Both the position numbers and the translations under genes were made by a program. 64,000 nt of DNA from a virus: IMG/VR virus record IMGVR_UViG_3300043803_002519; one strand, given 5' to 3'. Below the pieces are notes generated by a model. The model worked only from the letters and a program-made list of their open reading frames with translations. It ran no database searches and was not told the DNA's origin. How positions within the stretch are numbered: position 1 is the stretch's first letter; every line of letters begins with the position of its first letter. Below, one piece after another: positions 9,414-44,417 of this stretch.

Positions 9414-10760
9414 ATGTCCTACGGCAACGTCCGCACCCTGCTCGACCGCGTCGGCGTGAAGGTCGAGCACAGTCCGCAGGACCGTGACTCTCGAGCGGCG
9501 CGGCTCGACATCTTCAACCGGCACCTGTCGGACGTGTCCTCGGCCCAGCCGTGGCGCTTCCTGCAGACCGAGGCCGACTTCAAGGTCTGGTACAAGCGGG
9601 ACAACTCCACCACCGCCTTCACGGTGGCGGTCACCAACGGCTCCACCGCGGTCACCGTGAGTGGGGACTTGGGCACGGACTTCGCCCTCAGCAACGCGGG
9701 CATGGAGTTCAACGACGGGCTGGATGCTGTGGGAGGGGCATCGGTCTACACCATCGCGCGCTTCACGAGCGCCACCGGCGCCGCATTCGTTCTGGACCGC
9801 CCCTACGAGGGGGCCACGAACGCGGCCTTGACGACCTGGTACATCGGCAACGACAAGGTTCTGCTCCCCTTCGACTGCGGCCAGCCCATGGGCTTCATCG
9901 ACCGGGTGAACGGCCGTGGCCGGCTCATCTCGTGGGACCGCCGGCGGGAGGAACTCTACCTGTCGACGATGACGGGGACGGGGGACGTGTGGTGGATCGT
10001 AGACGGGGACACCCCCTACGACCGGCCGCCGGACTCCACCTTCGCAGGGGTCCTCAGCACCGCAGCAGGCACGCTCTTGGCGAGCTCCATCTTTCAGTAC
10101 GCCTACACCTTCGAGCAGTTCGGGCGGGAGTCCCCCCCGGCCATCATCGTCGAGGTCACAACGGGGGCCGGGGCCAACAACCAGGTGGTGCTGTCGGGCA
10201 TCGAGAACACCGAGTACTCCGCCGGCGTCAGCGTCGGGAAGCGGAAGTACCTCTACCGCCGGCAGGTGTCGCGGTCGTCCACGACGCTGGGCAACGTCAA
10301 CGGGCCGTGGCTGCGCCTCGCCACCATCTCCGAGAGCGCCACCACCTACACCGACGACGGCTCCATCACCCCGACGCGCGCCGACAACAGCGCCATGTAC
10401 TTCGAGGGGCCGTCCCAGTACATGCGGCCGAAGGCCGACCCTCAGGAGGACGAGGTGCTCCGGGTCCGCTACCTCCAGCGCGTCCGGAAGCTGGTGAGCG
10501 ACTCCGACGTGCCGTCGAAGTGGCCGTCGGAGTACTACGACATGTTCGTGCTGCTCACCGCCATGGACATCGTCGGGAGCAACTCCGAGCTCGCCAAGTC
10601 CCGGAACTGGGAGGTCGCCGCGATGAACATGCAGAAGCGGGCGATGGCCGGCTGGGTGCAGGTGCCGGACCTCCCCACCCAGAAGCAGGGGTGGGGCGTG
10701 GGCGGCTTCGGGTCCTACGTGGTCCGCGCGGGCACGGTCACCTCCGACTTCGGGTCCTGA
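9414..10760 (+). CDS. virion structural protein (adaptor or tail-tube position)
   Basis: 448 aa with a GGAG RBS. The call is by position only. Confidence 0.45.
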   Translation: MSYGNVRTLLDRVGVKVEHSPQDRDSRAARLDIFNRHLSDVSSAQPWRFLQTEADFKVWYKRDNSTTAFTVAVTNGSTAVTVSGDLGTDFALSNAGMEFNDGLDAVGGASVYTIARFTSATGAAFVLDRPYEGATNAALTTWYIGNDKVLLPFDCGQPMGFIDRVNGRGRLISWDRRREELYLSTMTGTGDVWWIVDGDTPYDRPPDSTFAGVLSTAAGTLLASSIFQYAYTFEQFGRESPPAIIVEVTTGAGANNQVVLSGIENTEYSAGVSVGKRKYLYRRQVSRSSTTLGNVNGPWLRLATISESATTYTDDGSITPTRADNSAMYFEGPSQYMRPKADPQEDEVLRVRYLQRVRKLVSDSDVPSKWPSEYYDMFVLLTAMDIVGSNSELAKSRNWEVAAMNMQKRAMAGWVQVPDLPTQKQGWGVGGFGSYVVRAGTVTSDFGS

Positions 10761-13504: not shown

Positions 13505-14137
13505 ATGTCCCGTGTAGTCGTCACCGACCTTGTGCCGGGCACCGAGGCCACCAGCGCCGACGTCAACGCCACGATCACGTCGTGGAACGCTGCTGCTGGC
13601 GCAGGGGACATCGGCCCCAACAATGTGCGTCAGGAGGGCATTGACCGGCGCACCTTGGCTCTCGGGGGGCAGGCGATTCAAGCCCCTCCAGCGGACTTCG
13701 CCGCCTGCTTCGAGAGCGGGTCCACTGCCACGGTCAACGCAATCACAGCGACGTGGGGGATTGTCGACGTAGGGGCCACGCTCTACATCGGCCCGATGAC
13801 CGACCTCTCGTCGTCGTCTTCCGAGACGGTGGTCGTTCGGGCGAGCGTGTGGTTCGCTGGACCAGCGCTGGATGGGGCCACCGACCCCGCGCTGTACGAG
13901 TTCATCATCCAGAGCAGCGTGGATGCCGCGACGTGGGTCGACTACGACGAGTCGTACCAGCCGTTCCAAGTTACGGCGTTCGCCACTGACGTTCAGCCGA
14001 GGTGCGTCGGGGTGTACACGTCCCTTGTGGCCACCACCCCGGCCGGGAGTCGGGTGTATTGGCGGGTGGCGTACAAGGCGAGCGCGGCCGTGGAGTGCGA
14101 CGGCGGCACCATCTACATCGAGGAGTACGCGCGGTAA
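13505..14137 (+). CDS. hypothetical virion protein
   Basis: 210 aa. The ATG lies 1 nt after the previous stop. Confidence 0.5.
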   Translation: MSRVVVTDLVPGTEATSADVNATITSWNAAAGAGDIGPNNVRQEGIDRRTLALGGQAIQAPPADFAACFESGSTATVNAITATWGIVDVGATLYIGPMTDLSSSSSETVVVRASVWFAGPALDGATDPALYEFIIQSSVDAATWVDYDESYQPFQVTAFATDVQPRCVGVYTSLVATTPAGSRVYWRVAYKASAAVECDGGTIYIEEYAR

Positions 14138-14889
14138 TGCCGATCTCCATCAGCACGTTCTCCTCGGGGGCCGTCATCAGCGCCACGGAGCTTCGCTCCC
14201 GCGCAGCGGCCATTGAGGACTACGTCAACAAGCAGATTGAAGCCGGGGATCGCACCACGAACTGGATGACATCCGGGCACGTCTACGGCCCCGATTTCCA
14301 GTACGGCAGCGGCTACGACGCGCACCTGCCCTTCACCGGCGGCCACGCCTACTGGTCCCAGCGCCCCAACGACGACGGCCGCCGCGCCATCTTCTCCTGG
14401 TTCGCTGGGGAAGGACCCGCGATGGTGCCGGGCCTCACGCGCACGATTCAGCTTCCGGAGGCTATGCCTTCTGGGAAGTACCGGGCGTTGGTCCTGGCCT
14501 CGTTCTGGGGCTACGAGTACGGCGGGCTGGGAGAGAACAACACGGCCACCGTGACGGTTACGCCCTTCCAAGACGAGGAGAGCGCCCCCGCGTGCTCCTT
14601 CCGACTCTACGAAGACGGGGCCGAGGTGCCCGCTACCTCGCGGAAGGTGTACCCCTCCAGCTGCGCGACAGACAACGGGTGGGTGGGGGGATCGAGCGGC
14701 ACCTGGGGCGCCGCCTCGGGGCTCATCTACTGCCGGAAGCAGATCAGCATGGTCCACGCGGTGCATTGGGGCACCGCCGGTGTCCACACGGTCGGGGTCG
14801 GGGTCACCTGTCCCGCCGCCGGGGCAGGGCAGTGGAAGCACATTTTCGTGCGCGAGGGGTCGTTCTACGTGCGGTATCGCATCCGGTGA
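14137..14889 (+). CDS. hypothetical virion protein
   Basis: Starts MPISISTFSSG. TAATG overlap with the previous stop. The internal start of track ORF 14002-14889 was chosen. Confidence 0.5.
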   Translation: MPISISTFSSGAVISATELRSRAAAIEDYVNKQIEAGDRTTNWMTSGHVYGPDFQYGSGYDAHLPFTGGHAYWSQRPNDDGRRAIFSWFAGEGPAMVPGLTRTIQLPEAMPSGKYRALVLASFWGYEYGGLGENNTATVTVTPFQDEESAPACSFRLYEDGAEVPATSRKVYPSSCATDNGWVGGSSGTWGAASGLIYCRKQISMVHAVHWGTAGVHTVGVGVTCPAAGAGQWKHIFVREGSFYVRYRIR

Positions 14890-20047: not shown

Positions 20048-23000
20048 ATGCCGAGCCCGCGATCTCCCCAAGAAATCCTTGATGCGCTGGGGATGACCGA
20101 GGACGAGGTTCTCGGGCCCCTCCCGCCCAAGGACGCCGTCGAGCTCGCACCCGAGGACTACCGCGACCCGGAGGTCCTGCCCGTGGGCGAGGAGCCCCCG
20201 GAGGGTGGCGCGCGGACCCCGCGGGGTCGCATCGCCAAGGGCTACGCGAGTGCCGTCTACGAGGATGGGAACACTGCCCTCCGCTCGCTTCGCGGGGACG
20301 TGGCGGACCACCTCATCACCCAGGGGCTTGCCCCTGAAGACGCCAGGCTCACGGCCTACGAGGACACCCGGCACCTCGAGGCCACCGGCCACGTCGAGGA
20401 CAGCGAGGACGCGGCCGACGCCATCCGCGCGCGTGAGGGGGAGCCGACCGTCGGCAAGGCCCTCACCATGGCGGTCAACCGCGTCACCCCCATCGGGCTG
20501 GACCAGGGCCCGGAGGAGTGGGGTCGCCGCGTCCGCGAGAACGAGAAGGCCACCTGGGGCGAGCGGTCCGACGCGCTCGGCAAGGCCTTGCAGGGCGAGG
20601 AGATCACCGAGGCGGACGCCAAGGCGGCGGGCATTGACCTCCCGCTCGTGCAAGAGCTCAAGAAGGCCTACGTCTCCCACTTCGGGGAGATGGTCTACAC
20701 TGCCGGCTCGGCGGGCATCCTCCCGACCATCGGCTCCATCACGGGGCTGATTCCGGGCTGGAGCGACGTCGTCGAGCAGTCGGGCAAGAACCTCGAGGTG
20801 GCGAAGGAGGGGAAGAAGTATGTTACCTCCGAGGAGCTCGTCAAGATCGCCGCCTACGGCGGGGTCAACTCCCCCATCGGCGACGCCATCCCCTACATCG
20901 TGGATGCCGCGGTCGACTTCCATGACGTGGTCACCGGCGAGGACAAGCAGGGCAGGCTCCGCAGCGCGACCGGCGGGACCGTGGGGGACGTGTTCTGGGA
21001 CTTCGTCTCCAAGGGCCGGCACAACGAGAAGTTCGACCCCGCGGCCAAGGCCCTGTACGAAGAGGGGGATGTCGCTGGCTTGGGGCAGCTGGGCATGGTC
21101 GACATCCCTGAGCACGTTCCGGCGGTCAAGGTTGACCTGCCGACGTTGAAGAGCGCCGTGGAGGCGGGGGGTCTGCTGGCCGAGGCGCCCGAAGCAGATC
21201 GGTTCCGGGTGGGGATGTCCAGTGGTCTGTCCGACGAGGTGCTCCAGACCCTCGCTGACGCCATTCCTCTGGACGTGGTGCGCCGCGCGCAGCCGGACGC
21301 GGGCCCGACGTTGAAGTCCGTGCTCGCGGCCTACACGGCTCGCAAGAAGATTCAGGAGATCGTAGGCACCCCCGAGGCAGACGACGCCCTCAAGGTGGCC
21401 GCGGCCGCGCTCCACGACCGCGAGGTGCGGGAGGACGGCTCGGTGTACTTCGTGCCGTCCACCACGCAGAAGGTCCTGACCGCAATCAATGCGGCCGTGC
21501 CTCTCGTCATCGAGGCAGATGTTCCCGTTCTCGGGCCCGTCGCCGGCGTCTACGGGGGCGTGCTCAAGGCCATGGGCTTCGAGAAACTCGGGGGCATGGC
21601 GGAGTCGGCGAGGTTCCCGACGGCAGCTGGCAACGAGTCCATGGTCGCTTCCGGCGACTTCGATTGGGTCCTTGAGGGCATGGGCCTTCAGGGCAGCACC
21701 TCTTCCGAGCGTCGGCGCGACATCGGGGAGTCTCGGTACATCGACCGCGTGTTGGCCGACATGCAACTGCCCCAGTACCAGAACTGGGGCCTGAAGGAGC
21801 TCGGCCGCGACCTTGGGGTGAAGCCGGGCTCCACGGCGGACGTGGCCCTCGGGACCGCGGACCTTGGGGCGGACACCGTCGTGCCCTTCGAGGAGATGTT
21901 CCTCGGGCCCGCCGGCTCGGCGGTCACCATGGCCTCGCGCGCGGCGACGGCGGCGAAGCTCAGCAAGATGCTCGGGCGGAGCAACTCCCAGGCGGCACGC
22001 GTTGCGGTGCGAGCGGCGCTTCCCCAGTTCCTGGGCGGGTCGACGGATGCCGTCGCGGCCATGGACGCGGCCCTGCGGACGGCCGTCGCCGACTCGGTGG
22101 CGGCGGGCGAGGTGCTCTTCACGGTTGGCCGCGGCGAGGACGCCGTGAAGGGGACGCTCTCCAAGGAGGTCCAGCGTGCCGTCGGCAACCTCCTCGAGGA
22201 CGTGGGCATCCGCAAGGAGGACGTGTTTCGCACGGTCAACGACCTCTCCTTCGCGCAGAAGGCCAAGAACACCGTCATCGTGAAGGACTGGATGGCCCGG
22301 GGCACTCCCGAGCAGAAGGCCCTCCGCGAGACGGCGGAGTGGAAGGCGGTGCGACAGGGGCTGGAGGAGTCGGCCCCGCCAGAGGTCGTGGACGCTGGCA
22401 TGGCGCTCAACGAGTGGATGGCGCACCAGGCAGTGGTGCTGGGCGAGTTCCGCTCCCCCAAGGACTGGTTCGCCGCGCAGCGCGTGGGCAAGGCCATCGA
22501 CGGTGCCGCGCCTCCTCCGCCGCGCCCGACCACGGTCGCTGACGCCCTGCGCGCGGCCGCTACGGATGCGGACGGCGAAGTGTCGGCAATGGCTGCGCGC
22601 CTCTTGGCGATGAACCATCCGGCGGTGACGTCCGCCGCGCTCGACGTGGGCGTGGACCTCGGGCCCGGCGTGCACGGCCGCTACGACATCGCGGACAACC
22701 ACATCGTCCTGTCGCCGAGCGCGACCGCGAGCACCCTCGTCCACGAGGTGGCGCACGCGGTCACGGCCCACGCCCTTCGCAACGTCGACACCCTGTCGCC
22801 CGCCGGTCGCAAGGCGGTGGCGGACCTGCAGGCCCTGTACGCCAAGGCCTCGGAGTCCCCCGACCTGCAGGCCGTCGGCCTGGGTCTGGACAACCTCGAC
22901 GAGTTCATCGCTGAGGCCTACTCCAACCCGGCCTTCCGCGCGGCCTTGCGGAAGGTGAAGGTCACCCCCACCAAGAGCGCCTGGCGGGTGTTCGTCGACA

Positions 23001-26000
23001 CCGTGGGACAGCTCCTGGGTCTCAAGACCAAGCCTGAGCTCGACGCCCTCGACCGGACGCTGAGCAAGATCGAAGTCGTGGCCAAGGAGCGCGTGGTGCC
23101 GGGCCGCGGCGGAGGGTCTCTGGCTTCTCGGGCGGCGCTGGTCAAAGACCCGCCGGCCCCGGAGCCCCCCGACGTTCTTCCAGAGCGGCACCCCGCCGAC
23201 ACCTGGGCGGACGTCCGCGGTCCCATTGGGTGGTGGATGCCTCTCGACGAGGTCGAGTTCCGCATCGGTCAGATGGCGGAAGAGCACGCCATCTTCTTCG
23301 ACCGCGAGGGGCGCCAGATTGCGCGCTTCGGGCCGGAGGACACTCGTCGGGACGCCCCGGGGTACGATCCTGCCACCGCGTGCATCATCTACCCCAAGGC
23401 GCTGGACGACCTCGCGGCCTCGGGTGGCGGGGTCTACACCCACAACCACCCCAGCGGCAGCGCCCCGTCCATCGACGACGTTCTCGTGGCACGTCGCGGG
23501 AACGTGGACGCACTGCGCGCTGTCGCACGGAACGACGGATTCACCTGGGTCGTTCGCCGGCCAGAGGCGGGCTGGCCAGAGACCGATGTGTTGCGAAGGG
23601 CGTGGAAGGACCTCGCGCACACCGTGTACCTGTCTGCCAAGAAGCGCATGGACGCCCGCATCAAGGCTGCGGGGGGGAACCTCTGGGAGGGCGACCGGGC
23701 GGCTGGCTTCTCTGAAACCGTATGGAAGGAGTACCTCACGAATGGCTACGACACCCACTGGGCCGAATACTTCGGGGACCTTGGCATCGTCCTCGAGCGG
23801 GAACGGCACCCCCATCTTGGTCAACTCGGACTGGACGCCCCGGTACGGGGAGCCGCTGGTGCTCCCGGAGCCGGACCCGCAGTTGCTGGAGCCACCGAAG
23901 CGGCCCGCTACCCCGCCGTCGGAGTAGGCGAGCAGGGCAGGCTGTTCTCCCGTGCTGCGCCGGAAGGCGGCACTGTTCGGAAGGGCCGGCTGGGTTCGGA
24001 CCTCCCCCGACTGCTGGACCTGCTCGGAGCGAGCATGTACTCCAAGCCGCTCGCAGAGGTGGCTGTCAAGGAGTTGGTGCAGAACGCATTCGATGCAATC
24101 AAGGCCACTGCCCGCACGGATGGGCAGATTCACGTCACCCTGAACGCCCAGGAGCGCACCCTCTCGGTGGCGGACAACGGCAAGGGGATGACCCCGGAAG
24201 TCGTGCAGGACGCGCTGTTCACGGTCGGAGGAACCAACAAGGAGGGGCTCGCCGTGGGAGACCGCTCGGGCGGGCTGGGGTTGGCCAAGATGGCCTTCCT
24301 GTTCGGGTCCGAGTGGGTCGATGTGGACACGGTGCATGGGGGGGTTCGCACCCGCGTTCACGCCACGTCGGCGCAGATCAAGGCCTCCGACTTTGACATC
24401 GTGACTGAGCCTGCCCCCGGCGCGCCCAACGGAACCAATGTCACTCTCAAGATTCCGGAGACGTACCGAGACCCTGCCTCTGGAGCGGACCGCACCATCT
24501 ACCTCTTCAAGGAGCAGATGACGAGCGAGCAGGGGTCGGGGGTGCTGGACAGGCCGCTTTTCGGGAACGTCGAGGTCCTGTTCACGGAGGTTCCGCGGTA
24601 CGGAACGCCGTCAACCGCCACGCTGCCCGTTGGCAGGAACACTGACCCGCTCGCAACCCCCCTCCTGACCCGCGCAGCGTTCGACTGGGGCTCCGCGGAC
24701 GTCTACATGGGGGACGCCCGGAAGAAGTACCCCCGGCACCGAGTACTGTCTGCGGGACTGCATCAGTTTGATACTGCCATTCTCGCAGGTAACGAGCGCA
24801 TCCCCTACGACATCGTAGTTGACATTCGCCCGGGAGTGGACCCGCTCCACCCACACTACCCGTTCAACAACCAGCGGGAGGGGTGGCGCGGTACGGTCGA
24901 GGCCGACGTCAAGGCCCTGAACGGCTACATCGCCAAGCACTCCAGCGGCCGCGCCGCCGCAGAGACGTCGGACGTGTTCAAGGGGGCCGTCACGATGCCC
25001 CGTGTGGCGCCCGACGACCTGGATGTCGGAGCGGCCGCTCCCGCGGCTGTGAAGGCGTTTGCGCCGAAGGCTCCCCCTTCTCCACCCCCCGAGGGCGCCG
25101 CGGCCCCGAGGGCGCCCGACGTAATCAAGATCAGCGCCGGCGCTGTGGCCCCTTCGGTATCGGAGCGGGCGGCCCCAGACAGCTTCCGTCCCGAGAGGGC
25201 GGCCCCCGACCTTCAGTCCTTCGTCGGGTCCGTGGCCGTGGACCCCCTGAAGCCGCTCTTCCACAACAACACGGGAGTCGACTACATCGGCGCGGTGCGG
25301 GCGGCGCTGCCTGGCGCCGAGCCCGAGCGGTTCCTCGCGGAGATGGGGTCGCTGGTCCTCGACTTCAAGGAGGCCGCGGCCAAGCAGGACAAGTACGGTC
25401 TGGCCGATCTGGTCTCGTTGGAGAACCCCTACGCTGCAGGCATCTCCATCGACAAGGACTACCGAGGGGTTCACGTCAAGGTCCCGTACCGCGCGTTCTT
25501 CCTGAATCCCCTCGCGGCCACCAACGAGACCGCGTCGGGCCTTGCGGAGAGCATGCTCCACACGCTGGTCCACGAAGTGGCGCACACGACCGTGATGGCG
25601 CACAACGAGAACTTCGCTCTCGCGCTGGCGGACGTTTACGACCGGCTCGGAGACTCCGGGGACACAGACATCTTCCGGGCGCGGCTGCGGAAAATACTGA
25701 CGCGGCACCAAGACACCTTCAACGAGATGAGGCGCATCTATGACAGCCCCCGCACAAGCAATCTCCGAGGCGCTCTGGAAAACGGCGAGCAGCTTTCCAC
25801 CCGAGGAGCGCCCGGCCCAGGTGAAGGCGGCCCTGGAGCAGCACCTGGAGATGCTGCAGCAGTCGGGGGGCTCGACGGAGATGCAGGCCCCGCTCGTCGA
25901 GGCGTTGGAGAGCCTTCTGCTCGAGAACTGATCGAGGCGGCTCTGCCGGGTCTCTCCGGGCACGGGAACGCCGCGCGGCCGGGTCCGCTCTACTCCCGCG

Positions 26001-29000
26001 CGGCCCCGGCCCCCTCGGCAGTCCCGAAGCCGTCGCTTCCTGAACCCACCGACGAGGTGCGTCGAGCGCATCAAGCCCTCGTCGTCAAGCGACTGCTGTC
26101 GCCGAGCGCAGAGACGCGCGCGGCGCACCAGGCGTACCAGGCGGAGCACCCCGAGGTGCTTGCATGGGCGGAGTACCGGGCGGCTGTCGCCGACGCAGAG
26201 TTGGCTCAAGCGCGCGAAGCTGCCCGCGCGGAGTACGAGGCCGGAGCCCCCGCCCGTCAGGCTGCAGCGGACGCGAAGGCGGCACGGTATGCGGACGCGA
26301 AGGCGACCGGAAAGAAGCTGCCCCCGGAAGAGCGGGCGATGAATCGTCGCGAGTGGTTCGGGGACTCCGCGGTGACGACCACGGGCGAGGCCGGTGGGAA
26401 GCCGCTGGTCGTCACGCACGAGTCGCCGTCAAAGTTCTCGGAGTTCCGGGCAGGGGAGTTCGGCTTTCACTTCGGGGTCGGCATCCCCGACGGGATGTTC
26501 GGCAGCAACCGGGTGTCGGGGCTGCTCCGCATCAACAACCCGATGCGGATGGCTGACCTCGGGGTGTGGACGCCGGAGCGGGTCCTTGCGGAGGGCGGGT
26601 TCAGCACCGCGGAGCAACCGCGCCTGCTGGCGGAGGTTGAACGGATTCGGGCGGAGGCGGACGCGCCGACGAAGGCCATGGTCGCGAAAGCACGGGCTTC
26701 TGGAGACGTGGCCACGGCCGAGAAGTGGCAGGCCCTCTTGGAAGATGGCAGCGATGCGGCGACCTTCCGCGACCGCCGCGGGAACTACCTGGCGAGCCGG
26801 CCGGTGCATGACGCCCTCCGCGAGAAGGGCTACGACGGCATCGTGTACCGCAACGAGGCGGAGGGGGTCGACGACTCCTACATCGCCTTCGAGCCGCAGC
26901 AGTTCAAGTCGAACAAGAACGTCGGGACCTACGACGCCACCGACCCCCGCTTCCTGTACAGCCGCGCCGCGCCAGCCCGCGCCGCCGAGGAGGCGGCCGA
27001 GCCCCTGCCCGTGTTTCGATCTCCTGCCGCCACAGAGCAGCGCTGGCATCGGATTGGCGACGACCATCAGTACACCGAGTTGACCATCTCCCCTGAGGGG
27101 GCGCTGGACCCGTCGTTGCCGAGCTACGCGAAGCGGGGAAGGATGTCCAGCGGTCGCGGGACAGGGTTCGCCTCTGGCATGTACGCATTCGCTGACGCGC
27201 GCCAGGGGACGGTTCCCGTTCTCCCCGCCCGGAACCCCCTGACGCTTCGGTCGTGGGGGCTTGAGGTGCCCAACGCGGCGGCCGAGTTCCAGCGGGATGC
27301 GTCGTCTCTCCTGTTCCTCGCGGAGCGCCTTCGCGACCTGTCTCCGGCGAAGCGCGCAGAGGCCATCGATCTGTTGCGCGCGAGGGTGTCCTCCTCCTTC
27401 GAGGAAGTGTACGACGCCGAGAAGCGCCTTGCCTCCCCCGAGTTCGGCATTGGTCGGGGTGTGTTTGGCGGGGAGCCCAAGTTCCCGTCCGACCTCGCGA
27501 CCGCCCTTGACCCCCTCCTCTCGCGCTGGCGGAGGGTGGGTGTGCCTGCGGGCCTCGACGGAGCCGGCACGGTGGACGCGCTGATCGATGCGGCGGCGAC
27601 GTGGGGCAAGCACCAGCATGTCCACCCGGTGAACATCCTGCTGAGTCGAATGGGCCACGACGGCATCGAATGGGCGGGAGGGGCGCTCAAGGAAGGCAAC
27701 ACCGGCGCCCACGGCTTCGTCAAGTTCCCGCCCATCACCGCAGACGGCGCTCTCGTTGACGTCGTTCCAGACCCTCGTCATGGCTACGCGGTGACGCACG
27801 GTGGGCGCGACCCGCGGGTGCTGTACTCCCGCGCCGCGCCAGCCCGCGCCGCCGAGTACCGCGGTGTAGACGGCAAGCCCCGCACCGCCACCATGTTCAG
27901 CGGCGGTGGGCTGGTCGAGGCGGGTCTCCGCAAGTACATCGACCCGGTGTTCGCGGTCGAGGTGAGCCCTGAGATCGGAGCCGCGTACAAGGCGGCCCAC
28001 GGCGACCACGTCCGCATCGACGACGTCCGCAACGTCGACCTCGGCGAGGCTGGCGACGTGGACTACCTGCACGCCTCCCCGGTCTGCAAGAACTTCAGCG
28101 CCGCCAAAGCCGTCACGGAGTCCGGTGAGCAGCCCCTGGACCTTGAGACGGCTCGGGCCACCGCCGACGCCGTCCACCGCACCCAGCCCGCGGTCTTCAC
28201 GCTGGAGAACGTGCGGGGCTACCAGGGCACCGAGGCCATGGGGCTGGTCGAAGCCGCGCTCCGCGAGGAGGGCTACACCTTCGACGCCAACGTCTACGAC
28301 GCGGCCGACTACGGCGCGGCCACCCGACGCAAGCGTCTGCTGCTCCGGGCGGTGAAGGACGGGGACCTCCCCCCGGTCCCGGCGCCCACGCACGGGCCCG
28401 GCCGGGCGCAGCCCTACGCCGACTGGTACGCCGCCGTTGAGGACCTCGTAGATGACCTGCCCGACGACGTGGTCCCCCCGTGGATGCGACGGCGCCTCGA
28501 GGCGGCGGGGATCGATCCCGACGCGCCGGCGAAGCCCACCATCGTCATGGGCGGCAGCGCTGGGAAGAACGTGCCCTACGCGGAAGCGGGGGGGCCTGCC
28601 CCCACGTTCAAGGCCACGCCGGGCGAAGCGCACCGCATCATCTTCCCCGACGGGCGGGTCAAGCGGGTCACGCCCCGCGCAGCCGCTCGCATCACGGGCC
28701 TGCCTGACGACTACCCGCTGCCCACCAAGAACGCGACGGCGACGACGGTCATCGGCAACGGCGTGCCCCCGGCCCTGAGCGAGGCGGTGTTCGCGCCGCT
28801 CTTGGCGGGCGACCATGTGCCGGGGACGCTCTACTCCCGCGCGGCGCCTATTGAAGACGCCGCGCCCGGCATCGTGGCCCTCCGCAAATACATGCTGGAT
28901 GCGGCCGGCGACGATACGGCGTTCGACGCCAAGGTCTACGCTGAGCGCAAGCAGGTCTGCGCGTTGACCGGGCACTGCAACGCGGCGGCGTACATCGTTC

Positions 29001-32000
29001 AGAAGCGCTACGGCGGCGAGCTTCTGAGTGCGAAAGTCGACGGCGAAACGCATGTATGGAACCGGCTCGCCGACGGCACCGAGATCGACCTCACCGGTTC
29101 GCAGTACGGCGGGGACGGGTTTCACCCGGTAGCGAAGAATGGAAAGGTGGTGCCACTGCGATCCACGGTGAACCCGCGGTTTGCAGCGTTTGAAGACCGC
29201 GTGGCCGCTGCGGAGCTGCGCGCTGCGCGCGACCCTCGGTTCCTCTACTCCCGCGCCCCCGGCAACCAGACCGACACGCCCGCCTTCCAGCGCTTCATCG
29301 AGGGCACCAAGGCCGTGGACGAGGACGGCGCGCCGAAGCGGCTGTACCACGGCACCACGCACGACTTCGAGGCCTTCGACGCGCAGAGTGGGAACGTCGA
29401 GAACCACCACGGCCGTGGCATCTACCTGACCTCGTCGGAAGGCGACGTCGGGTCCAACTACGCCACCCGCGAGGGGCCCGACCTCAAGAGCCGCATCGAG
29501 TCCCAGATGGAGTCCCTCCTCGACGTCTGGGACGACCCCAGCGTGGCGCAGGACTTCGTCGAGCGGTGGCTGGAGGCGCACCCTGAGCGCGCCGCCGAGG
29601 GCGAGCGGCTGGTCCAGGTGCTGGACGACGGGGGGAACCCCGACGCGAATCTCTTGCAGGAGATCACTCGGTGGGTAGCCGAGCAGGAGATTGCTGGCTC
29701 GCACGGGGGCGCAGTCCTGCCCGTCTACGCCGCCATCAAGAACCCCGTCGATTTGCGGCCCGGCAAGGTGACACGCTTCGACATCGAGACGAAGTGGTCC
29801 GAGGACGGTGAGGACTTCCTCGGCGAGACCGGGGCCGGCGTGGAGGCCATCGACGCCATCCGCCGCATGGCCAACTCCTCCGACACGGCGGACCTGATCA
29901 TCGAGGCGCTCGGGGACATCTCCGAAGGGTTCGACGCCGCTGACCTCGAGCGCGCAGTGCGGGACAACTCCATCGAGTTCCTCGACGACGACTCTTCAGC
30001 GGGGCAGTTCCTTCAGGACGTCTACCGCGAGCTGGGCTTCGACGGCATCGTCATCGACGCCTACAAGACCTTCGGCCCCCGGCGCGCAGGGTGGGGGGTA
30101 AACCTCCCCGGCATGGCGGGGCTGACCCCCGGCACGGAGCACTGGGTCGCCTTCGAGCCCACCCAGGTCAAGTCCGCCACGGGCAACCGCGGCACGTTCG
30201 ACCCGAAGGACAAGCGCCTCTTGTACAGCCGCGCGCCTGACGGCCCGACGTGGACCGCCGAGCCCCCGCCCCCGGGCGACAAGGTCCCCGGCATCGTCGA
30301 CAACCCCGCCCACGCGGCTTGGTCCAAGACGAAGCGTGACCTTGCGAAGGATGTCGCGGACCTCGAGGACGCGGAGCTATCCGCGTGGTGGGAGCACTAC
30401 GGGCCCTCTCCGGACGCGCCGACGGTCGCGCCCAGGCCGAAGAACTTCGCCGAGGCTCAGGCCTACTGGACCGAGCACGGCGACGACCCGGCGGAGTTCC
30501 CCGAGCCCTCCCCCGAGCTCTCTGCGAAGCTGCAGGCCCTCGACGATGCCAACGCCGCGCCCGAGCCCTCGCGCACCACCGCAGGCTTGGTGAACGACCC
30601 GGCCCGCGTCATCGTCCGCTACTTCAAGACCGCCAACATGCAGGCCCTGCTCGAGCAGAACGCTCAGGTCATCCGCATGCTGCTCGGGGAGAAGTGGGCG
30701 GGCGACCTCATGCGCTTCTTCGACCACGAGGTCGACACAGCCTCCGGCCAGGTGCGCCTCACGAAGAAGGGCGAGGAGCAGTTCAACGTGGCCCTCGCCC
30801 GCGTCCTGCGCGGCGACCTCGCGCCCCGCGGCCGGGTGCGGGCGTACTTCGAAGAGCTCCGCGATGCGCTGAGCGACATCTGGCTGAACCTCCGCGGCAA
30901 GCCCATGTCGCTGCCCCCCGGCTTCCGCCAGTGGTGGGACGCCACCCTCGACCCGGCCAAGCACCTCCGCGCCCGGGTGAAGGTCTCCGACGAACGCTTC
31001 GGGCGCCAGCCGCTCGAGGTCAACGTCACCGTGAAGGCGAACGACCCCGACGCTCCCCCGCCGCCGGACCCCACGCGCCTCGGGCGGGAGCTCGCCGACG
31101 TCACGGACGTCATCTACCGAGAGGACTTCAAGCGCGCCAACGCTCTGCACGAGTACTGGAACCTGCCCCTGACGCCCGGGCAGAAGCGCCACGCCCTCGG
31201 CATCCTGGGCAGCGACACCGACGTGGATGCTGTCGAGGCCGTGGCCAAGGCCATCGCGCTCCTCGGCACGACGCAGGCCCGCCGCCGCTGGGGCTTCTCC
31301 GGCAAGGTGGTGCGGGTGGGTCGGCGCAGCCAGGTCTCCGAAGACCGCAAGGAGAGCGTGCTGAAGCGCGCCCGCGAGGCCTTGCACGGGGCCATCGGCG
31401 GCGACGTGGTGGCCGCTCCCGACGGCGGGGTGACCCTCACCCCCGAGCAGGCCAAGGGCCTCGCCGCACACCTCGACCACCTCGTGGACGCCGGGTGGGG
31501 CGAGCAGCTGCCGGACGAGTTGATCAGTCCGCAGAAGGACCTCACCAAGCTGACCGAGCAGGAGTGGTCGGACATCGCCAACACCACGGTCGACGACGTG
31601 GCGGGCCCTGGCAGCTACCGCGACCGCCAGGCCGACCGGGTCGTGGGCAACGCCGCGGAGAGCCTCCTCGGCCGCGCGGTCGACGCACTGTCCACCGTGC
31701 CCATCTTCAACGGCGTGCGCCGGAAGCTGACCGAGGCCTTCGACACGACCTTCGCCGGCAGCAAGAACATCAACCCCGCCGTGGCCGAGGTGGTGGACGG
31801 GTGGCGTCGCGAGTTCAGCGACGTGGCATCCCAGATTGCCCGCCTTCGTGAGCATGTTCGCGCGGGCACTGCAGACGAGACGGCCGAAGTCCTGATTCGG
31901 AAGATTGCCAAGGAACTGCCCGCCGTGGGCCCCGACCCCAAGGTGGTCGACGACCTGGTGGTGCTGAACCGCGCCCTCAACCCTGAGGGGGACGTCACGC

Positions 32001-34837: not shown

Positions 34838-35830
34838 ATGAAGCTCGCCGCCGCCGATACCATCATCGAGGAAAGCCTCCTTCTCGACACCGGCTTCGTG
34901 TTCTACAACCGTGCGCGCACGGCCAGCATCACTGCGGGGACCTCGGGGTTCTCCGTCGTGGGCGACGCCTCTGACACCGGCATCGCCGGTACGGCGGGCT
35001 CCTCGGGTACGGGCACCACCTCCGGCACCGCCGGCGGTGCGATGGCTCGCACCGGCGGCGCGGGGGGCTCGGCCACCTCGACCGCGGGGGCGGGCGGCGG
35101 CGCCGGCGGTGCGGTCGCCAACACCGGCGGTGCGGGCGGCAGTGCCGCAGGCACCTCGGCAGCTGGCGCAGGCGGCGCGGTCACCAACACCGGCGGCGTC
35201 GGCGGAGCGAAGACCGGAACCGGCACCGCCAATGGCGGGGCGGGCGGCGGGGTCTCCTCTCGGGGCGGCGACGGTGGGGCCACGGCCTCTTCCAACGCGG
35301 GCTCCGCGGGCGGCGCTGGCGGCACCGCCGGTCTCCGCGGCGGCGCGGGCGGCGCGGCCACTGCCGGCGCGGTCAGCGGCAACGGCGGTGGCATCCCCCT
35401 CCAGCCCGGCGCGGCCGGCGCGGCCTCTGGTGGAAGCACCGTCGGCAATGCCGGCATCGTCTACGTGGCCACGGCCACCACCCCGGTGGCCGCCACCGGC
35501 GCGGTCGACCAGACCGCCGCGACGGTCGCCAACGCGGGGACCATCTCCGCGGCCCAGCATCGTGGCCAGCAGGTCTACCAGGACGCATCTGGCGGCAACG
35601 TGACCATGACGACCCTGTCCGCCACCCTGTTGGCGGGGGCGCTGCCCAGCCTCCCCACCGGCGGCTTCATCATGCTGTACTGCGCCAGCAATCACGCCAG
35701 CAACACCTCCACCATCGCAGGAGGGACCGGCGTGACCGTGGTGGGCGCCGCCTCGTTCACCCAGACGGGCGCCACCTTCCTCCTCCGCAAGACCGGCGCC
35801 GCGGCCTTCGACCTCATCCGGGTCGGGTAG
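34838..35830 (+). CDS. glycine-rich tail fibre/spike-like protein
   Basis: 330 aa. The central ~170 aa consist of TGGAGGSA-type Gly/Ala/Thr repeats, followed by a globular C-terminus. GAGG RBS. Confidence 0.5.
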   Translation: MKLAAADTIIEESLLLDTGFVFYNRARTASITAGTSGFSVVGDASDTGIAGTAGSSGTGTTSGTAGGAMARTGGAGGSATSTAGAGGGAGGAVANTGGAGGSAAGTSAAGAGGAVTNTGGVGGAKTGTGTANGGAGGGVSSRGGDGGATASSNAGSAGGAGGTAGLRGGAGGAATAGAVSGNGGGIPLQPGAAGAASGGSTVGNAGIVYVATATTPVAATGAVDQTAATVANAGTISAAQHRGQQVYQDASGGNVTMTTLSATLLAGALPSLPTGGFIMLYCASNHASNTSTIAGGTGVTVVGAASFTQTGATFLLRKTGAAAFDLIRVG

Positions 35831-42682: not shown

Positions 42683-43206
42683 GACGCGACAACGATGCCT
42701 ACTTCACGGCCCCGGCGTTAGCCCAGGCCCTCGTCGACACGCTGGACATCCTCCCCGGCGACGAGGTGCTCGAGCCCCACGCCGGCGGCGGGGCCTTCGT
42801 CGAGGCCCTCCTGCGGCGCACGCCGGCGGTGGTCGCCTCTGACATCGCTCCCGGGACGGGGTGGTACGTGCAGGACTTCCTGACGCTGCTGCCCACCACG
42901 ACGTTCGACTGGGTGGTGGGGAATCCCCCGTTCAAGAACTTCGAAGCCCATGTCGCCCAGGCCCTGACCATCGCGCCCCGGGTGGCCTTCCTCCTGCGCC
43001 TCGCGGCGATGGAGTCCATCGGGCGGATTGAGACGTGGAAGGTCTGGCCCCTGCGTCGGGTCAGGGTTCTGGCGGAGCGGCCCTCGTTCACGGGGGACGG
43101 TCGGTCGGACTCCTGCGCCTACGGGTGGTTCGAATGGGACCGGGCATGGGCGGGTAAGCCCGCCGAGGTCGTGCCCTGCTGGTCGTGGCGGAGGGTGGCC
43201 TCGTGA
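42679..43206 (+). CDS. N6-adenine (or N4-C) DNA methyltransferase, small gamma-type
   Basis: Motif I LEPHAGGGAFVEAL and motif IV VVGNPPFKNF. The GTG start overlaps the previous stop (GTGTGA). Confidence 0.7.
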   Translation: MRRDNDAYFTAPALAQALVDTLDILPGDEVLEPHAGGGAFVEALLRRTPAVVASDIAPGTGWYVQDFLTLLPTTTFDWVVGNPPFKNFEAHVAQALTIAPRVAFLLRLAAMESIGRIETWKVWPLRRVRVLAERPSFTGDGRSDSCAYGWFEWDRAWAGKPAEVVPCWSWRRVAS

Positions 43207-44417
43207 AGTACGGCTCCGTCTGCTCCGGCATCGAGGCCGCCACCGCGGCTTGGCACCCACTCGGCTGGACGCCGGCGTGGTTCGCTGAAATCGAAGCGTT
43301 CCCCAGCGCGGTCCTCGCGCATCACTACCCTCAGGTGCCCAACCATGGTGACTTCACCCAACTCATCGACAACTCGCCGGAGGGCGTCGACGTCCTCGTC
43401 GGCGGAACCCCCTGCCAGGCCTTCTCCGTCGCAGGACTCCGACAGGGTCTTGCCGACCATCGCGGCGGCCTCACGCTGGAGTTCCTTCGACTGGCTCGAG
43501 CACTTCGCCCGAAGTGGATCGTCTGGGAAAACGTCCCCGGTGTCCTGTCGCAAGACGGAGGACGGGCGTTTGGAGCCTTCCTCGGGGGGCTGGAAGACCT
43601 CAGGTATGGGTGGGCCTACCGGGTCCTGGACGCTCAGTACTTCGGACTAGCCCAGCGCCGCAAGCGTGTGTTCGTTGTCGGATGTGCTGGAGGAGACTTC
43701 GCGCGTGCCGCAGCGGTTCTCTTTGAGCCGGAGGGCCTGCGTAGGGATTCTCCGCCGCGCCGTGAAGCGGGGGCGGGGGCGGGAGTTGCCGGCGCCATTA
43801 GCACAGGCGCTTCTGGCGGTGGCGGGCGGCTGATCGGGGCTGACGAGGCCGCCGCAAGTCAGATCGTACCGTATGGGGGTGGGGATGTGGCATGGCCCGC
43901 CACGATCGCCCCGACGCTCTACGCTCTGATGGGCGAGAAGATGGGCATGGAGAACCAGCACATAAACAGCGGAGCGGGGCACTTTGTTCCCACGCTATCT
44001 CCGTGCCTCGAAACCCAGGTGGGTGGCCTGCGCCACCCCGACACGCAGGCCTATGTCGTCAACGCGATGCCGGTCTCGCTTGGTAAGGGCCTTGGGCACA
44101 ACAAAGATGACTACTGCGTGCCGTCAACACAGGGCGTCCGCCGCCTGACGCCGACCGAGTGCGAGCGGTTGCAGGGGTTTCCCGATGGCCACACCCTCGT
44201 TAGCTACCGAGGCAAGGCGGCCAAGGACTGCCCCGACGGCCCGCGCTACAAGGCCCTGGGGAACTCGATGGCGGTGCCGGTCATGCGTTGGATCGGAGAG
44301 CGTATCGCTCTCGCGGAAGCCCTCGCGGAAGCCCTCGACCAGGCGCCCCCGGTGCCATCGGTGCCATCGGTGCCTGCGTGGTTGCAGACCTGGTCCGGTC
44401 GGCAGGAGCAGGATTGA
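43203..44417 (+). CDS. C5-cytosine DNA methyltransferase
   Basis: CSGIEAAT, GGTPCQAFSVAG, VWENVPG, LAQRRKRVFVVG and LGNSMAVPV. The GTG at 43203 overlaps the upstream stop as GTGA. The track start at 43185 is an alternative. Confidence 0.9.
   Translation: MKYGSVCSGIEAATAAWHPLGWTPAWFAEIEAFPSAVLAHHYPQVPNHGDFTQLIDNSPEGVDVLVGGTPCQAFSVAGLRQGLADHRGGLTLEFLRLARALRPKWIVWENVPGVLSQDGGRAFGAFLGGLEDLRYGWAYRVLDAQYFGLAQRRKRVFVVGCAGGDFARAAAVLFEPEGLRRDSPPRREAGAGAGVAGAISTGASGGGGRLIGADEAAASQIVPYGGGDVAWPATIAPTLYALMGEKMGMENQHINSGAGHFVPTLSPCLETQVGGLRHPDTQAYVVNAMPVSLGKGLGHNKDDYCVPSTQGVRRLTPTECERLQGFPDGHTLVSYRGKAAKDCPDGPRYKALGNSMAVPVMRWIGERIALAEALAEALDQAPPVPSVPSVPAWLQTWSGRQEQD

Follow-up and report, generated by a model that had tools for sequence, protein, structure and literature searches.

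A giant protein with two backbones and exchangeable cassettes

The window analysed here, a stretch of 64,000 nucleotides, belongs to an uncultured phage of ~70 kb. Its virion-gene block, in a context of terminase, internal virion protein and primase, contains an open reading frame (20048..34762, + strand, as are all features below) for a giant polyvalent protein of 4,904 aa, annotated from the ORF list, its translation and Pfam and PHROG domains. Twelve JGI metagenome contigs carry an identical protein. Polyvalent proteins of phages and conjugative elements were described by Iyer, Burroughs, Anand, de Souza and Aravind in 2017 (PMC5512222), and the present protein resembles them in that conflict domains, among them ART, DNA methylase, RadC and zincin peptidase, are combined in one very large polypeptide whose gene lies within a block of phage virion genes.

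In this protein two conserved backbones, N- and C-terminal, enclose two cassette-filled slots, slot A with zincin 1 and slot B with six cassettes. The N-terminal backbone (aa 1-813, 20048..22486) is common to relatives, and its residues 316-813 align with proteins from Hainich groundwater at 29% identity. Slot A (22487..23119) holds zincin 1, located by its HExxH motif (HEVAH, aa 899-903, nt 22742-22756); PHROG 2206, the family of the N4 virion RNA polymerase, gives a match to this region, and the Hainich relatives have an ART cassette here in place of zincin 1. A RadC/JAB-like domain with the sequence HNHPSG, followed by a G/A/P-rich linker (23186..23941), is 47% identical to the Hainich proteins.

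Pfam and a structure model define cassette 2 (23963..25987) as a GHKL ATPase and zincin 2 (HEVAH, aa 1842-1846, nt 25571-25585), followed by an 80-aa disordered linker; Foldseek matched the model to Hsp90 and GyrB. This cassette has 17 relatives in IMG/VR and also occurs, with the same limits, as a stand-alone protein of ~590 aa. Cassette 3 (26009..26953) is ART-PolyVal-like by Pfam and PHROG. Cassette 4 (26975..27820), without a Pfam match, has an ART-like C-terminal part (modules 3 and 4 match by BLAST at E = 1e-5) and is bracketed by 49-nt direct repeats of repeat family D7 (26941-26989 and 27808-27856, 88% identical). Then come a C5 cytosine DNA methylase (cassette 5, 27842..28828; Pfam PF00145, E = 4e-27), a YunG-like domain (cassette 6, 28850..29242; Pfam PF24585) and an ART-PolyVal domain with a Pfam match and a confident structure model (cassette 7, 29261..30220). 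The C-terminal backbone (aa 3398-4904, 30239..34759), delimited by alignment with relatives, has 1,605 relatives at E below 1e-3, many of them 2,000-7,800 aa long, and a stand-alone homologue of 897 aa on a low-GC phage contig. Its N-terminal zincin, HENAH in relatives, has here lost the catalytic residues (LEQNAQ, aa 3536-3540, nt 30653-30667).

A short motif recurs at the cassette joints

A sequence-only reading had reported seven copies of an [LF][YF]SRA motif, and all seven were confirmed: LFSRAAP at 23942..23962 (copy 1, aa 1299), LYSRAAP at 25988..26008, 26954..26974, 27821..27841 and 28829..28849 (copies 2 to 5, aa 1981, 2303, 2592 and 2928) and LYSRAP at 29243..29260 and 30221..30238 (copies 6 and 7, aa 3066 and 3392). 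Copy 7 opens the C-terminal backbone and is called the resident copy below. The module sizes claimed (about 1298, 675, 315, 282, 329, 131, 320 and 1507 aa) were correct. A basic residue had been noted before the motif in four copies; we find arginine in five, copy 1 reading GRLFSRA. An eighth, degenerate copy, LASRAA (aa 1025-1030, 23120..23137), lies between zincin 1 and the next domain. With a position matrix built from the seven copies, these score 23-33 and the best other site among 35 window proteins 16; LASRAA (15.7) is the best in the giant protein after the seven. Outside the giant ORF, [LF][YF]SRA occurs in none of the six frames of the window.

The motif had been placed at every module boundary. 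This is true of the evolutionary cassettes but does not extend to all domain boundaries: the GHKL ATPase and zincin of module 2, a single unit, have no copy between them, and about aa 813 a copy is missing too.

It could be asked whether the motif is a chance or low-complexity repeat, or an integral structural element, such as a terminal strand or cap, of the domain before it. Chance origin of the repeats is excluded, since composition predicts 0.015 copies against the 7 observed and 2,000 shuffles of the giant protein never gave more than one. As to structure, the same peptide follows the unrelated folds of RadC, zincin, ART, methylase and YunG domains, which suggests a short linear motif with a common partner rather than part of a structural domain. 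Five copies could be inspected in structure models, and all lie in low-confidence regions between confident domains. At copy 1, pLDDT does not reach 50 until after model residue 14 (residues 11-20 have a block mean of 54); it is about 27-32 at copy 2, about 31 at copy 5 and below 50 at copy 6, so that four of the five remain below about 55. Moreover, 43 and 80 disordered residues separate copies 1 and 2, respectively, from the preceding fold. Only copy 7 offers something to a structural role, with a block mean of about 70 (model residues 471-480; next block 43) and one beta-bridge residue. Shuffles and models together largely refute the structural or chance origin, which we regard as extremely improbable. 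Burial inside folded domains, which would have spoken against a self-cleavage site, is not seen in the modelled copies, and the models place the tag in flexible linkers.

Relatives differ by whole cassettes, with breakpoints at the motif

Relatives with the same N- and C-terminal backbones differ in the internal cassettes that they hold, and stretches of identity begin or end only a few residues from the motif. Compared with P0054 at the protein level, the giant protein is 62% identical in the backbone, 97% in cassette 3 and 91% in cassette 7, with block ends -6 to +7 residues from the motif, although block ends at the tag are partly expected if the tag is the sole sequence common to neighbouring cassettes. 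Copy 2 forms the left edge of a block 97-99% identical to P0053 and P0054. The TARA contig L035 (backbone protein 62%) allowed the same comparison in DNA: cassettes 3 and 7 are 97% and 92% identical, and identity ends directly after the LYSR codons, as at copy 3. In this comparison the serine variant, AGC or TCC, goes with the upstream cassette, which indicates that the motif is the C-terminal tag of mobile cassettes.

P0053/L034, with a 99% identical backbone, is without cassettes 4 and 6. Its joint DPRFLYSRAAPARAAEYRG combines the left half of copy 3 with the right half of copy 4, and in P0053 the methylase is joined straight to the ART through ...SAPARLYSRAPGNQ. The Hainich contigs L030 and L031 are 99.6% identical except for a 336-aa methylase cassette in L030, 63% identical to cassette 5, which ends in VLYEGQ (aligned with copy 5) directly before the resident PLFERRAAA. 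No microhomology was found at the breakpoints of this insertion, so that event need not have used tag DNA. Exchange is also not confined to the tag, since the ART-core swap between L031 and L032 has its breakpoints inside conserved domain motifs, away from it. At other joints the tag aligns with divergent sequences: copy 1 with ILPSRAD (L007) and TLLEPTAP (Hainich), and LASRAA, always at its own joint, with VLYSEGG (P0053), ILPSRAS (L007) and PSILRDPSG (Hainich).

The motif is not randomly placed in homologues but tracks cassette joints, and its role as a boundary mark is strongly supported by relatives, beyond what domain signatures alone had indicated. The sequence comparisons show gain, loss and exchange of cassettes between phages, the breakpoints falling within the tag or immediately behind it.

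Selection on the peptide

The LYSRA core of the seven copies shows a single amino-acid difference, F for Y, and is encoded with three Leu, two Ser (AGC, TCC), two Arg and three Ala codons. Copies 3 and 4 share the 12-residue run LYSRAAPARAAE and, as previously noted, 34/36 nucleotides; both differences fall in the serine codon (AGC in copy 3, TCC in copy 4), and these codons are not one change apart. Since the copies differ almost solely at synonymous sites, the codon comparison shows that the peptide itself is under selection.

This bears on whether the motif might be a passive recombination scar, a functionless remnant of joint sequence homogenised by gene conversion in tolerant linkers. Such a scar would account for the long DNA stretches common to pairs of copies (27 nt exact between copies 3 and 4; 27/30 nt between 2 and 5) and for cassette gains and losses at repeats. 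Variation that is nearly all synonymous, including AGC against TCC, is unlike recent gene conversion or a neutral scar. The motif also forms a conserved island in linkers that differ between the giant protein and P0054 (backbones 62%), and the resident copy is still recognisable in relatives at 27-35% backbone identity. We consider a passive scar improbable.

The motif belongs to a wider family of tails

ART-PolyVal domains (Pfam PF18760) are followed by a tail, ...QIKSAxGNxGTFDPxDPxI[LR][FYHR]S..., before which the Pfam model ends. The core of the tag was found in 12/39 unique tails against 0.5 in shuffles, and DPRFLYSRA behind cassette 3 and DKRLLYSRA behind cassette 7 belong to this tail. 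The tag is a lineage-specific form of the ART-PolyVal tail, distinguished from it by being almost invariant and by also following non-ART cassettes (RadC, zincin, methylase, YunG). The sequence-only reading had offered, as its alternative, a shuffled C-terminal cap related to IR[FY]S ends; this is now borne out at nucleotide resolution by the breakpoints in or beside the motif, the upstream-linked codon variant and the membership in the ART-PolyVal tail.

In distant relatives the resident copy reads PLFSRAPDG, PLYSRTGP, LLYSREGE, SILHSRTGP or PLFERRAAA and lies about 25-35 aa upstream of the backbone zincin. Some lineages have their own recurrent version, located between mapped domains or next to them: in L007 ILPSRA three times, P-R-[FY]-S-R-R-A (RFSRRA type) four times in P0114 and [FY]S[KR][ST]F[DE] (FSKSFD type) four times in P0152. 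The pattern [LIVMFR][FY]S[RK] is 1.85-fold enriched in the 99 other backbone relatives. A recurrent LYSRA-type motif is missing in 99/101 long backbone relatives and in most relatives of module 2, so a highly regular tag is not needed for the architecture.

In stand-alone proteins such tails lie close to the C-terminus, 3-25 residues away from it (P0005 ...ISFNRGVR*, L025 ...LSYNRSAR*, P0012), and the small protein P0005 has a joint nearly identical to copy 6, ILYSRAPGNQTDTPAF, between two ART domains. Unfused effectors in arrays have a conserved N-terminal leader as a separate element. In unfused homologues a conserved leader ends in an SRA box, whose position with respect to the beginning of the ART domain is the same.

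Cleavage or docking

The sequence-only reading had preferred self-cleavage into eight effectors. The tag might accordingly be a polyprotein cleavage site, at which zincins or another phage or host protease would cut each copy, probably at LYSR|A, and free some eight or nine effectors, either within the capsid or once ejected. Cleavage is compatible with a cassette tag and would be its biochemical role. Selection on a peptide in disordered linkers fits it, and so does the finding that the arginine is in every case followed by a small residue (A, S or T), even though this residue is part of another cassette. The giant protein holds two intact HExxH motifs, distant relatives have the resident copy a short way before the backbone zincin, and lineage-specific versions are what co-evolution of protease and substrate would give. 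The leader with its terminal SRA box is reminiscent of the capsid-targeting sequence that gp21 removes in T4 and of the AXE sites in phage SPN3US (PMC7411985), and zincin processing of polyvalent proteins was predicted by Iyer et al. 2017 (PMC5512222).

Several observations weigh against a cut. In stand-alone proteins so close to the C-terminus it would achieve nothing. The backbone zincin beside the resident copy is inactivated in this phage, the other two zincins have weak Pfam support (E = 0.02-0.09), and the structure model gives no sign of copy 1 or 2 docking onto zincin 2. The 'JAB' domain, proposed as a peptidase, has an HNHPSG signature of the RadC type, argued to act on nucleic acids and not as a peptidase (PMC5512222). 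N4 virion RNA polymerase, ArdC and TraC1, with such domains, are delivered uncut (PMC5512222). The motif is missing in all other virion proteins of the window, which makes a general prohead protease unlikely. We hold cleavage to be a serious possibility, somewhat short of an even chance.

Alternatively, the tag might be an uncleaved docking peptide. Each copy would bind the capsid interior, scaffold, portal or ejection channel, so that every effector cassette has its own packaging tag and the giant protein retains them all. Encapsulins bind cargo in this way, through cargo-loading peptides. Docking accounts for the linkage of the tag to the upstream cassette and for its presence at the C-terminus of stand-alone effectors, for selection on the peptide in disordered segments and, through co-evolution with a structural partner, for the versions peculiar to single lineages; the leaders of arrayed unfused effectors indicate that this gene pool uses short targeting peptides. 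Yet the backbone should suffice for packaging, leaving seven further tags redundant although invariant, a recurrent tag is missing from most relatives that share the backbone, and docking does not account for the constraint on the residue after the arginine, which is the next cassette's. Docking seems to us rather unlikely.

Discussion

Poole et al. in 2011 reportedly described demarcation motifs of polymorphic toxins, VENN in CdiA and PxxxxDPxGL in Rhs. As here, a short conserved peptide stands exactly where a constant region meets a swappable cassette. CdiA and Rhs homologues share the motif and differ beyond it, and in Rhs self-cleavage also takes place at the motif. There, a single toxin cassette stands at the C-terminus, its immunity gene lies beside it and the motif is part of the constant region, whereas the phage protein, unrelated in sequence, has up to seven tandem internal cassettes, each with the tag at its C-terminus, and no immunity genes. 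In viral polyproteins, such as those of picornaviruses and potyviruses, one translation product likewise contains several enzymes, bears a short repeated motif where they meet and includes peptidase domains; the present protein differs as a dsDNA phage protein packaged in the virion rather than a replication polyprotein, and its processing is putative.

Capsid-targeting sequences and prohead-protease sites are known from head proteins that are ejected: T4 internal proteins and Alt are cut by gp21, and SPN3US proteins at AXE sites (PMC7411985). There, too, a short motif defines the processing of head-packaged, injected proteins, an ADP-ribosyltransferase among them, and a single conserved leader is common to variable effectors, which is also true of the arrays of leader-bearing genes described above. 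In the giant protein, cleavage is putative and the sites are internal and repeated instead of N-terminal; no prohead protease was found in the window. For polyvalent proteins, the original description contains no inter-domain junction motif, nor the word 'linker' (PMC5512222); the specific tag, the cassette slots between two backbones and the exchange at the tag are documented here.

We conclude that LYSRA(A)P is likely the boundary tag of exchangeable effector cassettes. Each cassette closes with ...(D)P-R-x-L-Y-S-R and its successor opens with a small residue, A(A)P. The tag may act as a short linear motif that the same partner recognises in every copy, for which the leading candidate, still a little less than even in our estimate, would be a peptidase cutting at about LYSR|A and freeing the cassettes, followed at some distance by a docking surface in the capsid or ejection apparatus. 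Its common coding sequence would at the same time give short in-frame homology for the deletion and exchange of cassettes.

A recurrent peptide in a giant polyvalent protein

The ORF list and its translation contain a 14.7 kb reading frame on the + strand (20048-34762) that encodes a giant protein of 4,904 aa. A pattern search bore out the seven LYSRA(A)P copies that the sequence-only reading had placed in it, at 23942, 25988, 26954, 27821, 28829, 29243 and 30221: [LF][YF]SRA starts at aa 1299, 1981, 2303, 2592, 2928, 3066 and 3392, with no further occurrence in the six frames of the 64 kb window. The proposed module sizes (about 1298, 675, 315, 282, 329, 131, 320 and 1507 aa) are correct, as is the sharing of 34 of 36 nucleotides by copies 3 and 4. 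Composition predicts 0.015 copies against the seven observed, and at most one was obtained among 2,000 shuffles of the giant protein. With a matrix built from the copies, which score 23-33, the next best site in the 35 window proteins scored 16. The observation of the motif is confirmed.

Motif-like strings also occur about 20-28 residues from the N-terminus of three neighbour products (14134-14889, 34838-35830 and 9414-10760): ELRSRAAAIEDY (compare copy 5, LYSRAAPIEDA), FVFYNRART, from the gene immediately 3' of the giant gene, and DSRAARLD. Two score 12.6 and 13.1, the third is outside the 30 best sites, and all are indistinguishable from chance. Candidate copies of the motif, or of the array leader described below, in other window proteins were sub-threshold look-alikes only and were left uncounted.

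Polyvalent proteins carry at least two distinct effector or enzyme domains in one phage or conjugative-element polypeptide (Iyer et al. 2017, PMC5512222). By this definition the giant protein is polyvalent, with HATPase_c, two ART-PolyVal, DNA_methylase and YunG domains plus HExxH and RadC signatures in one ORF. Pfam and PHROGs place the GHKL ATPase at aa 1337-1471, a weakly matching zincin at aa 1817-1847, ART-PolyVal domains at about aa 2094-2299 and from aa 3091, the C5 methylase at aa 2614-2915 and YunG at aa 2971-3021; the recognisable domains all lie inside motif-defined modules and none spans a copy. Candidates for the zincin-like metallopeptidase domain of this protein class are two HEVAH motifs (aa 899 and aa 1842), and the Pfam matches to Zincin_1, WLM and YgjP are all below threshold. 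Region 668-1016 matches the N4 virion RNA polymerase PHROG. The domain first labelled JAB carries the RadC signature HNHPSG, and Iyer et al. 2017 take domains of the RadC type to act on nucleic acids (PMC5512222).

The giant gene is that of a phage. Genes of the polyvalent class lie among virion genes, and their products are packaged and injected; here, a terminase and an internal-virion-protein homologue are encoded upstream of the giant gene, and a methylase, an exonuclease and a primase downstream. A second, stand-alone C5 cytosine methylase gene lies at 43185-44417 (PHROG 116, E = 2.5e-90), besides the methylase cassette. The identical giant protein is present on 12 JGI metagenome contigs, the longest of about 70 kb, and all members are known from metagenomes.

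Copies lie between cassettes in predicted disordered stretches

Two structure models, covering aa 2918-3410 and aa 1290-2000, span five copies, all in low-confidence stretches flanked by confident domains (block means of about 27-54 at copies 1, 2, 5 and 6, and about 70 at copy 7). The preceding fold is followed by a disordered spacer of about 43 residues at copy 1 and about 80 at copy 2. Burial of the motif inside folded domains had been named as an observation that would count against the sequence-only reading; since the five modelled copies lie in low-confidence inter-domain stretches, the models show no such burial. It is very hard to credit that the motif is a structural element of each domain, given where the modelled copies lie and the five unrelated folds preceding the copies, or that it recurs by chance, given the composition and shuffling figures.

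The idea that copies mark every module boundary stands for evolutionary cassettes and fails for domain boundaries in general, module 2 (ATPase and zincin) having no internal copy. Elsewhere this module is encoded on its own, as a protein of about 590 aa that begins and ends where the motif delimits it here. Between the first zincin and the RadC-like domain there is an eighth copy in degenerate form, LASRAA (aa 1025-1030), which aligns with VLYSEGG in P0053, a close relative of the giant protein, ILPSRAS in the related contig L007 and PSILRDPSG in proteins from Hainich groundwater. The seven invariant copies and this degenerate one sit at cassette boundaries.

Cassette 2 (23963-25987) combines a GHKL ATPase, a transducer-like domain and a zincin. 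It matches PHROGs that bear the annotation 'RIIA lysis inhibitor', and recurs both on its own and within giant proteins of IMG/VR, at least 17 of them. Internal repeats are masked in whole-protein self-BLAST, and module-against-module BLAST was used instead. Cassette 4 (26975-27820) has no Pfam match; it may be a third, divergent ART-like module, because its C-terminal 80 aa resemble the end of ART cassette 3 (BLAST E = 1e-5).

Cassettes are probably exchanged at the tag

Scanning metagenome contigs with module 1 retrieved three Hainich groundwater contigs (L030 to L032). The C-terminal module, run as a full HMMER scan, gave 1,605 relatives, and 101 of the 150 best are at least 1,000 aa long. 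A word-indexed search with the C-terminal 1,100 aa returned no match, self included, and is unreliable for such Ala-rich sequence. IMG/VR scans with modules 1 and 8 found nothing, and the module 8 profile found one distant stand-alone homologue. Among GenBank phages, megablast and tblastn detected no relative of the giant gene or of its C-terminal module; the matches were single-domain only, to methylases and to ART domains in Tunturi_5 and Mx1, whose ART tails lack the LYSR form.

What the relatives have in common with the giant protein is aa 316-813, the RadC region and aa 3519-4881; the stretches in between differ. The last ~800 aa of the giant protein (32000-34759) also have homologues in a stand-alone 897-aa protein on a low-GC phage contig (L033, 5479-8169) and at the C-terminal end of proteins as long as 7,833 aa; they represent a widespread family of virion proteins, for which Pfam has no model and which seems to anchor polyvalent arrays.

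The comparison with close relatives was informative at the joints. The sequence-only reading would have been weakened by homologues in which the motif was absent or randomly placed; P0053 (backbone 99% identical) has six copies, plus VLYSEGG at the degenerate position, and P0054 (backbone 66% identical by HMMER, 62% by BLAST) also has six, where about 0.1 is expected in each, and conserved blocks end at the motif. Relative to P0054, cassette 3 (aa 1978-2306) is 97% and cassette 7 (aa 3060-3399) 91% identical, against 62% for the backbone, and all block ends fall -6 to +7 residues from a motif start. At the DNA level, the TARA contig that encodes P0054 (L035) matches cassette 3 at 97% and cassette 7 at 92% identity, the identity ends immediately 3' of the LYSR codons, and the AGC/TCC serine codon variant tracks the upstream cassette. 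Thus, the motif behaves as a C-terminal tag of mobile cassettes, with the joints at its 3' edge.

Cassettes 4 and 6 are missing from P0053 and its contig L034. The joint left there, DPRFLYSRAAPARAAEYRG, combines the left half of window copy 3 with the right half of copy 4, and 49-nt repeats, 88% identical, lie on both sides of window cassette 4, so that the joint fits recombination within these repeats. L030 and L031 are 99.6% identical save for a C5 methylase cassette, in frame and 336 aa long, which shares 63% identity with cassette 5 of the window. Its insertion point is exactly between ...PPRK(A/D)GT and the motif in its local form, PLFERRAAAVLG, and it ends with VLYEGQ, aligned with TLYSRA of the window. 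The motif is probably a cassette-boundary tag at which cassettes are exchanged.

Two further observations concern these contigs. L031 and L032 differ in the core of an ART cassette (about aa 830-1135) and are otherwise 100% identical in the region; the breakpoints are inside conserved ART motifs (GAGAY..., YIAFRPEQIKS), away from any junction tag, and therefore intra-domain recombination also occurs. In L034, a scaffold gap at about 2900-3060 (Ns, read as XXXX in translation) breaks the giant ORF, so that two genes are called; the N-terminus of P0053 is apparently truncated, its 3,594-aa length being an assembly artefact of this gap.

Could the motif be a passive scar of such recombination? 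Over the five core positions of the seven copies, Leu is encoded by three different codons, Ser by two codon families, Arg by two codons and Ala by three, with a single amino-acid change, F for Y. Around the motif, the linkers of the giant protein and P0054 diverge, leaving it as an island of identity. Because of this synonymous variety around a constant peptide and of the island in divergent linkers, a passive scar or recent gene conversion alone is insufficient, and a scar is improbable. Selection acts on the LYSRA peptide itself.

The tag as a form of the ART-PolyVal tail

ART-PolyVal domains are trailed by a tail of the form ...KSAxGNxGTFDPxDPxI[LRS][FYHR][SN]R..., just ahead of which the Pfam model ends. 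We scored a tail when a hydrophobic, aromatic, polar, basic core followed within about 18 residues of ...KSAxGNxGxF; this core is present in 12 of 39 unique ART-PolyVal tails, against 0.5 in shuffles, and agrees with the ...IR[FY]S... ends of polyvalent proteins to which the sequence-only reading had pointed. Copy 7 has such a tail, as does copy 3 by sequence (KSNKNVGTYDATDPRFLYSRA), and the tag belongs to the tail trailing these domains. Copies 1, 2, 4, 5 and 6 follow folds other than ART, so the tag has spread beyond ART cassettes.

In distant relatives, the resident copy, which opens the C-terminal backbone (copy 7 in the window), is found ahead of the backbone zincin domain even at 27-50% backbone identity, in the forms PLYSRTGPTVHGSIE, LLYSREGETVHGSIE, SILHSRTGPTIHGSIE, PLFQRSAP and RFSRRAGQ. 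Some relatives have recurrent versions of their own: DDILPSRA three times in L007, P-R-[FY]-S-R-R-A four times in the protein P0114 and [FY]S[KR][ST]F[DE] four times in P0152, all between or beside mapped domains. No recurrent version was found in most relatives, including most relatives of module 2 (L008-L023). Among 99 other backbone relatives, [LIVMFR][FY]S[RK] is enriched 1.85-fold (72 observed, 38.9 expected).

On an uncultured huge phage contig (L003; LR756511.1, about 7900-8400), ...KGRLFLYSRVGLGMDD... stands in frame ahead of a YunG-like ORF, immediately after a stop codon; either an alternative start or recoding is at work, and an LYSR-type tag thereby comes to stand at the N-terminus of a small protein. 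The protein P0021 likewise starts with MKGLSPNVPTNYGLRYSRPF.

Arrays of separate effectors share a leader

On five high-GC metagenome contigs, small genes follow one another in arrays, with 6 to 16 called genes per contig (L024, 1-5491; L025, 1-6961; L027, 1193-13986; L028, 1200-13574; L029, 296-20590). They encode separate small ART, YunG, NUDIX, zincin and ParB-like effectors. A hydrophobic N-terminal segment is found in 41 of 56 products, mostly as a conserved leader, MNGxxLxLGxVGALALGAxxxRRGSRA, and a GSRA-like box follows in 27. Relative to the ART start (TPAF...), the SRA box of the leader has the same position as YSRA in the window, and one small array protein has ILYSRAPGNQTDTPAF between two ART domains. 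The leader arrays look like the unfused counterpart of the giant protein. In their common N-terminal leader they resemble the T4 internal-protein loci, which share a capsid-targeting sequence. We found no description of the leader as a family or in the literature. A Sec signal-peptidase site (S-x-A) was rejected: the hydrophobic segment is followed by arginines, and the domains carried as cargo work in the cytoplasm.

Possible roles of the tag

LYSRA(A)P follows five unrelated folds, at times after long disordered spacers, and the best reading is therefore a short linear motif recognised by one common partner. Cleavage and docking are possible roles, both compatible with a cassette-boundary tag.

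That the tag is a cleavage site is a serious though tentative reading. Selection on the peptide, the spacers and the recurrence after unrelated folds all favour it, as do the small residue that invariably follows the motif arginine, the two intact HExxH motifs, the proximity of the resident copy to a zincin in relatives and the SRA box in the leaders of the unfused arrays. Processing of polyvalent proteins by their zincin domains was predicted by Iyer et al. 2017 (PMC5512222), and ejected head proteins with motif-defined processing provide precedents: the T4 capsid-targeting sequence is cut by gp21, and SPN3US proteins are cut at AXE sites (PMC7411985). On the other hand, the zincin that opens the C-terminal backbone (30653-30667, aa 3536-3540) reads LEQNAQ in the window and in P0053, where P0054, the related P0055, the Hainich proteins and many remoter relatives have HENAH (or HEFAH, HEGTH); the backbone peptidase has lost its catalytic residues in the window lineage. 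Pfam support for the other zincins is weak, and several characterised polyvalent proteins are delivered uncut (PMC5512222). Docking of copy 1 or copy 2 on zincin 2 was not seen, both copies being disordered, a null that is uninformative because the model reports no contacts. Moreover, stand-alone proteins carry tails of this type 3-25 residues before their end. An uncleaved docking peptide, like cargo-loading peptides, would account for these terminal tails at least as well, but we regard it as an unlikely role overall.

A bolder and somewhat more doubtful proposal names the enzyme: zincin peptidases would recognise the tag, and a dsDNA-phage polyprotein of about 520 kDa would be packaged and cut between R and A of LYSRA into eight or nine effectors. 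The LYSRA, ILPSRA, RFSRRA and FSKSFD versions would then reflect protease-substrate co-evolution, and the same SRA box would end the hydrophobic leaders of the unfused arrays. If so, one processing and targeting code would serve two phage effector delivery routes, and a new cassette bearing the tag would be usable at once. Literature searches with the motif strings and on polyvalent-protein processing returned nothing relevant, and no proteomic data came to light.

Comparison with known systems and implications

The closest known motifs in logic are VENN and PxxxxDPxGL, which demarcate the toxin cassettes of polymorphic toxins. Like them, the tag is a peptide where likeness between homologues ends and cassettes are exchanged, yet it is not a member: polymorphic toxins have a single C-terminal toxin cassette and an immunity gene, whereas the giant protein has several internal cassettes followed by a 1,500-aa structural backbone, and the genes downstream are not immunity-like. 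As in self-processing viral polyproteins, a conserved site lies at the boundaries, here those of the cassettes; those polyproteins also encode an active protease, for which the HExxH motifs of the giant protein are candidates, its backbone zincin being inactivated and the domain first labelled JAB being of the RadC type. T4-type prohead-protease sites recur in capsid, scaffold and head proteins, whereas other window proteins score at most 16 against 23-33 for the copies. The candidate head genes gave no Pfam match and no PHROG match to a prohead protease, and these proteins are too divergent for exclusion. The literature yielded no account of a comparable junction tag in polyvalent proteins.

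The tag gives an exact site at which to look for processing by proteomics or mutagenesis, making the 2017 prediction of zincin processing directly testable. By defining cassette limits, it allows unknown effector domains to be excised from giant proteins, and it suggests an insertion point for foreign cargo in a protein that the phage presumably packages. Polyvalent proteins are considered major vehicles for the counter-defence enzymes of phages. For these proteins the locus provides a concrete grammar, in which cassette slots lie between two backbones and each joint bears a tag, together with nucleotide-level evidence that cassettes move between phages of marine, groundwater and other metagenomes that share only about 62% backbone identity.
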